Shown piece by piece: positions 19,244-22,903 of a DNA stretch of 64,000 bases. The position numbers and the translations under genes were made by a program. The stretch is from Streptosporangiales bacterium (GTDB lineage: Bacteria; Actinomycetota; Actinomycetes; Streptosporangiales; WHST01). A model generated the notes under the pieces. It did no database searches, had not been told where the DNA came from, and saw only the letters and a list, made by a program, of their open reading frames with translations. Every line of letters starts with the position of its first letter. Position 1 is the first letter of the stretch. The DNA lies in contig WHTA01000016.1 in assembly GCA_009379825.1 (NCBI GenBank), forward strand, positions 32,224-96,223, in the 5' to 3' direction.

Positions 19244-22200
19244 TCAGGTCTCCGGGGTGCCGTAGCCGCCGCCGCCCGGGGTTTCGATCACCAGGATGTC
19301 GCCGGCGCGGAGGTCGGTGGTGTCGGCGCCGGACATCTCCGTGACGGTGCCGTCGGTGCGTTCCACCCGGTTGCGGCCGAGCGCGCCGGGTGAGCCGCCG
19401 GCCATGCCGTACGGGGGCACCCGCCGGTGGCCCGACAAGGTGCTTGCGGTCATCGGCTCGGTGAACCGCAGCCGCCGCACTGCGCCGTCGCCGCCGTGCC
19501 ACTTGCCGGCACCACCGCTGCCGCGCCTGATGGCGTAGCTCTCCAGCACGATGGGGAACCGCCACTCCAGCACCTCGGGGTCGGTCAGGCGGGAGTTCGT
19601 CATGTGTGTCTGCACCACCGAGGTGCCGTGGAACCCTTCGCCTGCACCGGATCCGCCGGACAGCGTCTCGTAGTACTGGTAGCGCTCGTTGCCGAACGTC
19701 ACGTTGTTCATGGTGCCGATGCCCTCGGCCTGAACGCGCAGCGCGGCGTACAGTGCGCCGGTGATCGCCTGGGACGTCTCGACGTTGCCCGCGACGACCG
19801 CCGCCGGGTACTCAGGCGCAAGCATCGAGCCTTCGGGCACGACGATCTGCAGCGGCCGCAGGCAGCCGTCGTTCAGCGGGATGTCGTCGCCGACCAGGGT
19901 GCGGAAGACGTACAGCACCGCGGCGGTGGCCACCGAGCTCGGCGCGTTGAAGTTCGTGGCGAGCTGTGCCGACGTGCCGGTGAAGTCGATCGTCGCGCCC
20001 CTGCTGGCCCGGTCGACGGTCACCCGCACATGGATCTGCGCGCCGGAGTCCATCTCGTAGACGTGCTCGCCGTCGTCGAGCGAGTCGATCACCCGGCGGA
20101 CGGCTTCCTCCGCGTTGTCCTGCACGTGCTTCATGTAGGCCTGCACGACGTCGAGACCGAAGTGCTCGATCATCGCGTCGACCTCTTCGATGCCCTTCTC
20201 GCTGGCGGAGACCTGCGCGCGCAGGTCGGCGAGGTTGGTCTGCGGGTCGCGCGACGGGTAGGTCGCGCCGGCGAGCAGCTCCACCGTCTCCTCCTCGCGG
20301 AACCTGCCGGCGGAGACGAGCAGCCAGTTGTCGAACAGCACGCCCTCCTCGTCCAGCGAGCTGCTGAACGCCGGCATCGAGCCCGGGGTCAGCCCGCCGA
20401 CCTCGGCGTGGTGCCCGCGCGAGGCCACGTAGAACAGCACCTGGGTGCGCGTGCTGTCGTAGACCGGCGTCACGATGGTGATGTCCGGCAGGTGCGTGCC
20501 GCCGTGGTACGGGTCGTTGATGGCGTAGACGTCGCCCGGCTGCATGGTGTCGGCGTTGCGGTCGATCACCTCACGGACGGTCGAGCCCATCGAGCCGAGG
20601 TGTACGGGCATGTGTGGTGCGTTCGCGATCAGGTTGCCGTCCGGGTCGAAGATCGCGCAGGAGAAGTCCAGCCGCTCCTTGATGTTCACCGACTGGGCGG
20701 TGGCCTCCAGCCGCACGCCCATCTGCTCCGCGATGGACATGAACAGGTTGTTGAAGACCTCCAGCATCACGGGGTCGACCTCGGTGCTGACCGCGGACGT
20801 CTCGCCCGCCGCGCGCACCCGTTGTACGAGCAGGTGTCCCTGTGCGGTGGCGGCGGCCGCCCAGCCGTCGTCGACGACCGTGGTGGCGTTGTCCTCCGTG
20901 ATGATCGCGGGACCTGTGACCGTGTCGCCGGGGCGCAGCGCTGTGCGGCGGTGCAGCGGCACGTCGCGCCAGCCGCCGCTGGCGTGCATGCGCACCGTGT
21001 GTGCGCTCGCCGCCGCCTCGCCGGCGGGGTCACCGAGCCGGCTCAGGTCGGGTTGCTCGGTGACGCCGATCGCCTCCACGAACACCGCCTCGGCGATCAG
21101 CGGCCGGTCCATGAGGAACGAGAACAGCCGGCGGTACGTGGCCTCGAACCCCGCAGTCATCGACGCCGGGTCGGCAAGATCGACGGGCACAGCGGTGTCG
21201 GTGCCGTCGTAACGTACGTGCACCCGCCGGACGACCCTGAGGCGTTCCTCAGGCACGTCCTCGTCGAGCAGCTCGCGGCGGGCGTCCTGTTCGAGCGCGT
21301 CGGCCACCTCGGTCAGCCGCTGCATGGCGGACGCGTCGAGCTGGGTCTCCACCGACTGCTCGCGGGTGGTCGTGGTGTCGGCGAGCCCGATGCCGAGCGC
21401 GGACAGCACGCCGGCCATCGGCGGCACGAGGACGGTGGTGATGCCGAGCGCGTCGGCGACGGCGCACGCGTGCTGGCCGCCCGCGCCGCCGAACGTGGTC
21501 AGCGCGTAGCGGGTGACGTCGTGGCCCTTCTGTACGGAGATCTTCCGCACGGCCTCCGCCATGTTCGTGACGGCTATGTGCAGGTAGCCCTCGGCGACCT
21601 GTTCCGGGGTGCGGTCGTCGCCCGTGCTCTCGGTGATCTCGGCGGCGAGCTGGCCGAACTTCTGGCTCACCAGGTCGGCGTCGAGCGGCTGGTCGCCCGA
21701 CGGCCCGAAGACGTAAGGGAAGTGCGACGGCTGGATCCGGCCGAGCATTACGTTCGCGTCGGTGACGGTCAGCGGCCCGCTGCCCCGGTAGCAGGCGGGG
21801 CCGGGGATGGCGCCCGCGCTGTCCGGTCCGACGCGGTACCTGCTGCCGTCGAAGTGCAGGATCGACCCGCCGCCGGCGGCCACCGTGTGGATGTCGAGCA
21901 TCGGCGCGCGCAGCCGCACACCGGCCACCGTGGTGTGGAAGACGCGCTCGTACTCGCCGGCGTAGTGCGACACGTCGGTCGACGTACCGCCCATGTCGAA
22001 GCCGATCACCTTGTCGTACCCGGCGAGCGTGGAGAGCTGGGTCATGCCGACGATGCCGCCCGCGGGTCCGGAGAGGATGGCGTCCTTGCCGCGGAAGTGC
22101 CCGGCCTCGGCCAGGCCGCCGCCGGACTGCATGAACATCAGCCGTACGCCGGCGAGCTCGCTGGCGACCTGGTCGACGTACCGGCGCAGCACGGGGGAGA

Positions 22201-22885
22201 GGTACGCGTCGACGACCGTGGTGTCGCCGCGCGGCACGATCTTCGTGAGCGGACTCGTCGCGCTGGACAGCGACACCTGGGTGAAGCCGAGCTCGCGGAC
22301 CACCTCGCCGATCTGCTGCTCGTGTGCGGGGTACAAATGGCCGTGCATGCAGACCACGGCGACGGCACGGATGCCGTCCGCGTACACCGGCTTGAGGTCG
22401 GCGGCGAGCTGCTCCAGGTCCGGCTGGCGGAGCACGGTGCCGTCCGCAAGCACCCGCTCGTCGACCTCGACCACCCGTTCGTAGAGCAGCTCGGGCAGCA
22501 CGATCTGGCGGTCGAAGATACGCGGGCGCTCCTGGTAGCCGATCCGCAGCGCGTCGCGGAAGCCGCGGGTGATCACAAGCGCGGTGCGCTCGCCGCGACG
22601 TTCGAGCAGCGCGTTGGTGGCCACCGTGGTGCCCATCCGGATGCTCTCGATGCGGTCCGCGGGCACCGGTTCTTCCGGTGCGAGGTCGAGCAACGTACGG
22701 ACGGCGGCGACGGCCGCGTCGCGGTACCTGGCGGGGTCGTCCGACAGCAACTTGCGGGCGACCAGCCCGCCGTCGGGACGGCGGGCGACGACGTCGGTGA
22801 ACGTGCCGCCGCGGTCGATCCAGAACTGCCAGCGGCGGGCGGTGGGGCTGCTGCTACTCACCCCGGCAAGGTAACACAGGCCCAC
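19244..22885 (-). CDS. Fused hydantoinase A / hydantoinase B (5-oxoprolinase-type, ATP-hydrolysing) enzyme
   Basis: About 1200 aa. The N-terminus is [15 protein letters not shown] and the HyuB-like half includes [20 protein letters not shown]. An alternative start, GTG 22861, lies 6 nt after a TACCTT -10-like hexamer. Confidence 0.9.
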
Positions 22886-22888
22886 CTG

Positions 22889-22903
22889 GATTGTTCAACA
22901 ATC
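22889..22903. promoter_or_regulatory. Palindrome GATTGTTCAACAATC (15-nt variant of the GATTGTTGACAATC motif) immediately upstream of the oxoprolinase gene
   Basis: Read directly. The 7-bp arms are exact reverse complements around one central nt. It sits in the 21-nt gap between the SnoaL-like gene stop and the oxoprolinase start. Confidence 0.5.

Follow-up and report, generated by a model that had tools for sequence, protein, structure and literature searches.

PxpR (Cg1143) of Corynebacterium glutamicum is a GntR-type repressor of the pxpTABC genes, whose products include an NRAMP/APC-type transporter, PxpT, and the ATP-dependent 5-oxoprolinase PxpABC (Sundermeyer et al. 2026, PMC13274462). 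PxpR binds 5-oxo-L-proline, its published effector, with a dissociation constant (KD) of 726 nM and does not bind proline, glutamate, glutamine or aspartate; the product of the pathway is L-glutamate (PMC13274462). The PxpR site is a 17-bp inverted repeat, AGATTGTTCAACAATCT, whose mutation or deletion raises a pxpT reporter 6.5-fold, and pxpR is leaderless in C. glutamicum (PMC13274462). The eukaryote-type 5-oxoprolinase, OPLAH, is a single chain of about 1200 amino acids (aa) with HyuA-like and HyuB-like halves, and according to a count cited in PMC13274462 its homologues are present in 115 of 984 bacterial genomes. Here we consider a palindrome upstream of an oplAH gene in a 64,000-nt stretch of DNA (below, the window) from a Streptosporangiales bacterium (GenBank assembly GCA_009379825.1, contig WHTA01000016.1, positions 32,224 to 96,223).

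The palindrome, GATTGTTCAACAATC, occupies positions 22889-22903. We regard it as very probably a PxpR box, i.e., the predicted operator of a GntR/FCD repressor that senses 5-oxo-L-proline, because the central 15 nt of the published site coincide with it. Against AGATTGTTCAACAATCT the window site is identical at 15 of 17 positions, including all 15 positions of the core. The only mismatch is the outermost pair, which is A/T in C. glutamicum and G/C in the related loci L081-L087 (see below), and thus varies between species. Like the published inverted repeat, the window palindrome is centered on a single base; it is perfect, with arms of 7 bp. The gene downstream encodes a homologue of 5-oxoprolinase, and the box lies in its promoter region, as expected for a gene of 5-oxoproline uptake or hydrolysis. 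A GntR-type pxpR-like gene is missing alongside the box in the window and is present in L081-L085, L087, L027, L041 and L168-L170. In the window, which has a G+C content of 70%, GATTGTTCAACAATC matches only itself when up to three mismatches are allowed (0.12 matches are expected by chance), and the core TTGTTNAACAA with up to one mismatch occurs once (chance expectation 0.02). The features of the locus are the following.

22889..22903, no strand: PxpR-type operator (PxpR box), predicted from the identity to the core of the C. glutamicum PxpR site and from the box before GntR orthologues.
22868..22873, minus strand: putative -10 hexamer TACCTT (TANNNT type), 6 nt before the start codon, with equivalents in relatives.
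22859..22861, minus strand: GTG start of oplAH, with which a leaderless mRNA probably begins, from motif-start analysis and promoter geometry.
19244..22861, minus strand: oplAH, encoding a HyuA-HyuB fusion of 1205 aa that by homology (Pfam domains, identity to homologues) is an ATP-dependent 5-oxoprolinase of the eukaryote type.

The box lies between the TGA stop codon (22907-22909, minus strand) of a SnoaL_2-like open reading frame (ORF) and the HyuA-HyuB ORF. The gap at the palindrome measures 21 nt to GTG 22885, the start of the longest ORF, and 45 nt to GTG 22861. On the minus strand the elements follow each other as TGA-ATC-GATTGTTGAACAATC-(15 nt)-TACCTT-GCCGGG-GTG, with the box centre 35 bp upstream of GTG 22861.

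The origin of this arrangement can be traced in related loci, namely two contigs from Streptosporangiales metagenome-assembled genomes (MAGs), L081 and L082, an Acidothermales MAG contig, L085, and two metagenome contigs, L083 and L084. In all of them a GntR/FCD gene lies directly upstream of oplAH and overlaps it, and a box precedes the GntR gene (GGATTGTTGAACAATCC in L081 and L082/L085, GGATTGTTGAACGATCC in L083/L084). The gene order of L082/L085 is that of the window (FTHFS, FTCD_C, FolD, OsmC, TetR_C_43, SnoaL_2), followed by an MFS gene on the opposite strand, GntR and OplAH. In blastn alignments, window 27972-22968 corresponds to L082 2343-7839 and window 22836-19259 to L082 10014-13591. 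Thus 2.2 kb with the MFS and GntR genes in L082 are replaced by 132 bp in the window, and of the L082 arrangement these 132 bp retain the box, the -10 hexamer and a GTG in frame with oplAH, and nothing more. The spacer beside the box has diverged from that of L081, and the 15-bp core is intact. Judging by these alignments, the window box and promoter descend from the pxpR-oplAH promoter of the relatives.

The promoter geometry is conserved as well. In the window TACCTT (22868-22873, minus strand) is followed by 6 nt and then by GTG 22861-22859; the equivalent hexamers 6 nt before the start codon are TACGGT in L081, TACGTT in L082/L085 and TAGATT in L083/L084. All of these loci share one order, in which the box comes first and the hexamer, 6 nt and the start codon follow; the box centre is 35 bp from the start codon in the window and in L081, 37 bp in L082 and 31 bp in L083. 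No GGAGG-like element precedes GTG 22861, and the site therefore has the sequence features of a leaderless gene, i.e., a TANNNT hexamer 6-7 nt upstream and no Shine-Dalgarno element. A scan with the strict sigma-70 consensus did not call a promoter at TACCTT; our call is based on the actinobacterial TANNNT pattern and on conservation. GTG 22861 is the best start, since orthologues have 5-6 residues before the motif WQFWIDRGG, no in-frame ATG, GTG or TTG lies between this codon and the motif, and the start used by NCBI cuts the motif. The oplAH transcript is thus probably leaderless from GTG 22861, and the box overlaps the -35 region of this predicted promoter, which is the position of a repressor. 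The same geometry is found at window 54507-54521, where TATGTT is followed by 6 nt and GTG.

Public start calls at these loci look wrong. The NCBI protein (P0001) begins with MDRGG, within the WQFWIDRGG motif (window 22819-22861), and the start of the L081 GntR protein (P0121) is called upstream of the conserved -10 hexamer (L081 1282-1300). The conserved spacing, with GTG 6 nt after the -10 hexamer, points instead to window 22861 and L081 1300 as leaderless starts.

The predicted OplAH protein carries the Pfam domains Hydant_A_N, Hydantoinase_A, Hydant_A_C and Hydantoinase_B (E 1e-12 to 1e-198). HyuA-like and HyuB-like domains are fused in one chain of about 1200 aa, which is the architecture of OPLAH. 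The protein is 100% identical to one annotated as "5-oxoprolinase" in a Streptosporangiales MAG, and 75-79% identical to actinomycete proteins named 5-oxoprolinase by their sources; with proteobacterial homologues, among them a protein of a Bordetella MAG (L029), it shares 59-64% identity. Among solved structures it is closest to 7hk5_A, a fused chain of 1288 aa deposited as 'N-methylhydantoinase' (E 1e-138); the two-subunit caprolactamase 6yra_A is matched with E 1e-65. From homology and from the orthologues in PxpR-box operons we predict that window OplAH hydrolyses 5-oxo-L-proline to L-glutamate with ATP. The 5-oxoprolinase role of the whole actinomycete clade is, unlike that of OPLAH, predicted from homology.

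We also considered a caprolactamase or valerolactamase of the CapAB or OplBA type and rejected it. CapAB of Pseudomonas jessenii (PMC8453981, PDB 6yra) and the oxoprolinase-type enzymes that hydrolyse valerolactam in Pseudomonas (PMC11033972) belong to the same superfamily and share the ATP-dependent opening of lactams, but they consist of two subunits, whereas the window protein is a single chain. Its scores with the NCBIfam equivalog models CapA and CapB are 336.9 and 158.4 bits, far under the cut-offs of 1000. Control of oplBA in P. putida is reportedly exerted by an AraC-type regulator, not by a GntR protein.

On these points our results bear out a first-pass annotation of the window made from its letters. 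It had placed a palindrome with 7-bp arms in a 21-nt gap directly before a HyuA-HyuB fusion of about 1200 aa of the oxoprolinase family. It took the palindrome for an operator, which the core identity to the PxpR site makes credible, and proposed a leaderless start at GTG 22861 from TACCTT 6 nt upstream and the same geometry at 54507-54519, which the arrangement conserved in L081, L082/L085 and L083/L084 likewise favours. Among its candidate substrates was 5-oxoproline, itself a lactam opened with ATP.

The L081 GntR protein has thousands of homologues; the best 120 listed are 60-86% identical to it and come mostly from actinomycetes. We fetched ten independent loci (L081, L082/L085, L083/L084, L086, L087, L027, L041, L168, L169 and L170), whose GntR/FCD proteins are 60-73% identical to each other. 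The 17-bp box GGATYGTTSAACRATCC lies upstream of the GntR gene in all ten, and in nine the gene adjoins 5-oxoproline genes, the exception being L086 with ParA-like neighbours. oplAH is directly downstream of the GntR gene in L081, L082/L085 and L083/L084, while the divergent operon combines an MFS gene with D-Glu_cyclase (YcsI-like) and/or pxpB, pxpC and pxpA: MFS with pxpABC is found near the GntR gene in L087, L027, L041 and L169, and MFS with D-Glu_cyclase in L081, L083, L168 and L170. By these gene contexts, two non-homologous 5-oxoprolinases are tied to one regulator and one box. NCBIfam has no specific model for these PxpR-like proteins; the best match, phnR_burk, is under its cut-off. 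An apparent pattern of compensatory T>C and A>G changes in the arms of the box was dropped, as all four combinations (TT..AA, TT..GA, CT..AA, CT..GA) occur and the position is degenerate.

The window and its relatives thus resemble the C. glutamicum system in the operator core, the GntR-type family of the regulator, the ATP-dependent 5-oxoprolinase as target, and a leaderless gene (pxpR there, by prediction oplAH here). They differ in that the window target is the fused eukaryote-type OplAH rather than PxpABC, that the relatives have an MFS transporter in place of PxpT, and that the regulator gene is absent from the window locus. Besides, in C. glutamicum 143 bp separate the box from the start of pxpR, and autoregulation was considered improbable there, whereas in L081, L082 and L083 the box overlaps the promoter of the pxpR-like gene. 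A leaderless pxpR-oplAH operon with the box over its promoter suggests autoregulation in these relatives.

Several further observations concern this group. The D-Glu_cyclase gene (PF07286, YcsI-like) recurs with MFS divergently from the PxpR-like gene and behind the same box (L081 323-1117; L083 5216-6043; L168 3886-4653; L169 3603-4400; L170 3900-4667), which suggests that it is part of the 5-oxoproline regulon; its product possibly handles 5-oxo-D-proline or D-glutamate. In two Streptomyces genomes the eukaryote-type oplAH adjoins MFS-pxpBCA and the PxpR-like gene (L027 8460-17315; L041 10001-17167), and the two non-homologous 5-oxoprolinases encoded side by side may differ in substrate or stereospecificity. 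In L086, from Pseudonocardia zijingensis, a degenerate box, CGATTGTTGTACGATCC, lies at 6944-6960 with a second PxpR-like gene, whose product shares 66% identity with the L081 GntR protein; this species also has a further PxpR-like copy (P0151) and an oplAH that lacks the box (L002).

Reasoning from sequence, conservation, gene contexts and the identity to the published site, we would expect the window box to work as follows. A repressor dimer on the box would block RNA polymerase at the oplAH promoter, and 5-oxoproline would release it, by analogy with PxpR. This would allow the synthesis of OplAH, which would turn 5-oxoproline into L-glutamate and not into an omega-amino acid that needs GabT and GabD. 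As the locus has no regulator gene, the repressor would have to be encoded at another place in the genome and act in trans; otherwise oplAH is now constitutive. The former is favoured by two points: in a GC-rich genome the AT-rich core has stayed intact, and the neighbouring spacer has diverged from L081.

A number of facts weigh against a functional PxpR box. tblastn finds no PxpR-like gene in the 64 kb of the window, and the best 120 homologues listed include no PxpR-like protein from a Streptosporangiales MAG besides that of L081. The window box has lost the outermost G:C pair of the 17-bp repeat on its left side. The link between box and oplAH is lineage-restricted: 78 of 80 oplAH loci from reference genomes have no box within 10 kb, a palindrome scan of the 80 found none upstream of oplAH, and across the 1.65 Mb of oplAH loci the odd-spaced pattern occurs just twice, in each case before a PxpR-like gene. 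We infer the orthology of the PxpR-like group to C. glutamicum PxpR (Cg1143) from family, context and operator identity, and the substrate of OplAH from homology; with oplAH standing beside pxpABC in L027 and L041, that substrate could be a different one, e.g., 5-oxo-D-proline. A tblastn search of the window for other genes revealed no pxpA, pxpB, pxpC, D-Glu_cyclase-like or DUF1697 gene and only generic MFS matches of 25-39% identity. The GntR/FCD gene at 33720-34430 shows no relationship to the PxpR-like group (E 2.8).

Some of these facts would also fit a box that has outlived its repressor. If pxpR has been lost from the genome, the box may be kept only for its overlap with the -35 region, and oplAH may be a constitutive housekeeping gene for the repair of 5-oxoproline that forms spontaneously. 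The MFS and GntR genes have gone from the locus, no PxpR orthologue is left in the window, the box lacks its outermost base pair, and there is other local decay in the frameshifted SnoaL_2 ORF and the missing DUF1697 gene. On the other hand, the 15-bp AT-rich core has stayed intact in a 70% GC genome while the adjacent spacer diverged from L081, and the absence of pxpR covers 64 kb of a metagenome-assembled genome. We consider such a loss possible, though the less probable outcome. An operator still served by a PxpR encoded elsewhere would fit the intact core better.

The remaining explanations involve other sites and genes of the window. Sites with the same half-sites are found at a distance from oplAH, around another GntR/FCD gene.

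46390..46401, no strand: even-spaced site ATTGTTGACAAT between gabT and gabD; by spacing, of another operator class than 22889.
51710..51721, no strand: even-spaced site ATTGTTGACAAT, upstream of the Amdase-GntR operon (by spacing).
54482..54493, no strand: even-spaced site GTTGTTGACAAT, flanked by an Amdase gene on one side and by the genes for 2-hydroxyacid dehydrogenase and amidase on the other (by spacing).
50237..50905, minus strand: GntR/FCD regulator of the 45-57 kb locus, 31% identical to the PxpR-like group, of which it is a paralogue; it probably binds the even-spaced sites.

The half-sites GATTGT and ACAATC are common to both classes. The three sites read (A/G)TTGT-TG-ACAAT, with a centre of 2 nt, while the site at 22890 reads ATTGT-TCA-ACAAT, with a centre of 3 nt; thus the half-sites at 46-54 kb are 1 bp closer, and GATTGT and ACAATC exactly 2 nt apart are not found at 22889. 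The difference is constant within each class. Orthologues of GntR 50237-50905, 49-74% identical to it, were collected in 80 metagenome loci (L088-L167, 389 kb). These loci contain 88 sites of the form ATTGT-NN-ACAAT, and under a stricter pattern 79 even-spaced and no odd-spaced sites, whereas in the PxpR-like loci (L081-L087 and L168-L170) all 10 sites are odd-spaced and none is even-spaced. The even-class palindrome is 16 bp long with a 2-nt centre and has the consensus GTAGGATTGT(CA/CG/TG)ACAATCCTAC. The gene sets differ as well. The 80 paralogue loci encode Amdase (61-64 loci), 2-hydroxyacid dehydrogenase (30), amidase (20), gabD-like (21) and gabT-like (21) proteins, and in none of them is an OplAH homologue encoded. 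The invariant spacing in each class argues that the window holds two separate regulons rather than one: that of the oxoprolinase, and the 45-57 kb one, which shares with it the half-site GGATTGT and a regulator of the same FCD subfamily (31% identity to the PxpR-like group) but has the 16-bp palindrome GTAGGATTGT-CA-ACAATCCTAC and a gene set without oxoprolinase. As an observation in its own right, 45113-56927 appears to be a conserved and uncharacterised GntR/FCD regulon with two Amdase/EutA-like genes and with 2-hydroxyacid dehydrogenase, amidase, gabT-like, gabD-like and sometimes GDH-like genes.

It is conceivable, though improbable, that two paralogous repressors of one genome read the half-site GGATTGT and are separated by just 1 bp of spacing, and that after the loss of pxpR from the oplAH locus the orphan PxpR box was captured at least weakly by the paralogue. 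Such a capture, if true, would wire 5-oxoprolinase into the amidase/Amdase/GabT/GabD regulon as an intermediate of cross-regulation.

Improbable, too, is the model of the first-pass annotation, in which GntR 50237-50905 binds the 22889 site too, as a 15-nt version of the same motif, and OplAH opens a lactam to an omega-amino acid for GabT and GabD. The identical half-sites (GATTGT / ACAATC), the common flank ACAATCC, the similar recognition helix of a paralogue in the same FCD subfamily, and the absence of the cognate PxpR gene from the window make cross-binding thinkable. However, the site is not a version of the even-spaced motif but 1 bp wider, and in the loci examined the spacing classes never mix (79 even and 0 odd against 10 odd and 0 even), so one operator common to oplAH and gabT/gabD is not supported. 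None of the 80 paralogue loci has an OplAH homologue despite their Amdase, 2-hydroxyacid dehydrogenase, amidase, gabT-like and gabD-like genes, and the box descends, by the alignments above, from the relatives' pxpR-oplAH promoter. The lactam route fares no better, as the product of the PxpR-box pathway is L-glutamate and OplAH misses the caprolactamase equivalog cut-offs.

The idea that the palindrome is an operator of the TetR gene at 23449-24006, or a hairpin or terminator of the SnoaL_2 transcript, can draw on its closeness to both genes and on a possible short hairpin, but we hold it to be very improbable, given that in L082/L085 the TetR-SnoaL pair is 1.3 kb from the box past the MFS gene, that the fold is no better than that of shuffled sequence (z = -1.0), that the arms are AT-rich with no T-tract and no terminator was called by the scan at the site, and that there is no Rfam match. 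A PxpR box at the oplAH promoter thus accounts best for the site. The two neighbouring genes are as follows.

22907..23351, minus strand: SnoaL_2-like ORF, upstream neighbour of oplAH, with a frameshift near 23100; outside the regulon, as the L082/L085 orthologue pairs with the TetR gene.
23449..24006, plus strand: TetR (TetR_C_43), divergent from the SnoaL_2 gene; a separate unit, as the TetR-SnoaL pair is split from the box by the MFS gene in L082/L085.

The SnoaL_2-like ORF is split over two frames at 23095-23105 on the minus strand (...ETTDP | (G) MVVIVEIEHHG...). Its L082 orthologue is intact, with 149 aa, and the split in the window means a genuine pseudogene or else a mistake in the MAG assembly. 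A DUF1697 gene between OsmC and TetR in L082/L085 is absent from the window (window 24002-24028 against L082 6196-6809); this loss and that of MFS/GntR form two separate gaps relative to L082 in a stretch of 5 kb.

The region 28586-38973 contains a cluster of sarcosine-oxidase-like genes (GCV_T/SO_alpha, DAO), genes like those of the N-methylglutamate pathway (GATase, GXGXG, glutamine-synthetase-like), and the third GntR/FCD gene of the window (33720-34430). Together with FTHFS, FTCD_C and FolD at 24.5-27.9 kb, it looks like a methylamine or C1 module unrelated to the operator.

An operator of a described type before the expected enzyme is already known, and for the window itself the finding is mostly ordinary: an AT-rich palindrome in a 70% GC genome is given a function, and a speculative lactam-to-GABA pathway is set aside. 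Modestly new are a PxpR box at a eukaryote-type 5-oxoprolinase, the loss of the regulator gene from the locus, and a paralogous regulon that differs by 1 bp in spacing. The PxpR regulon, which was characterised as late as 2026 for pxpTABC of Corynebacterium, would thereby be extended, in several lineages of actinomycetes, to genes for YcsI-like proteins, MFS transporters and the non-homologous eukaryote-type 5-oxoprolinase. The two paralogous repressors, which would share a half-site and be kept apart by the length of the spacer, offer a natural example that may be of use in regulon prediction and in the design of 5-oxoproline biosensors.

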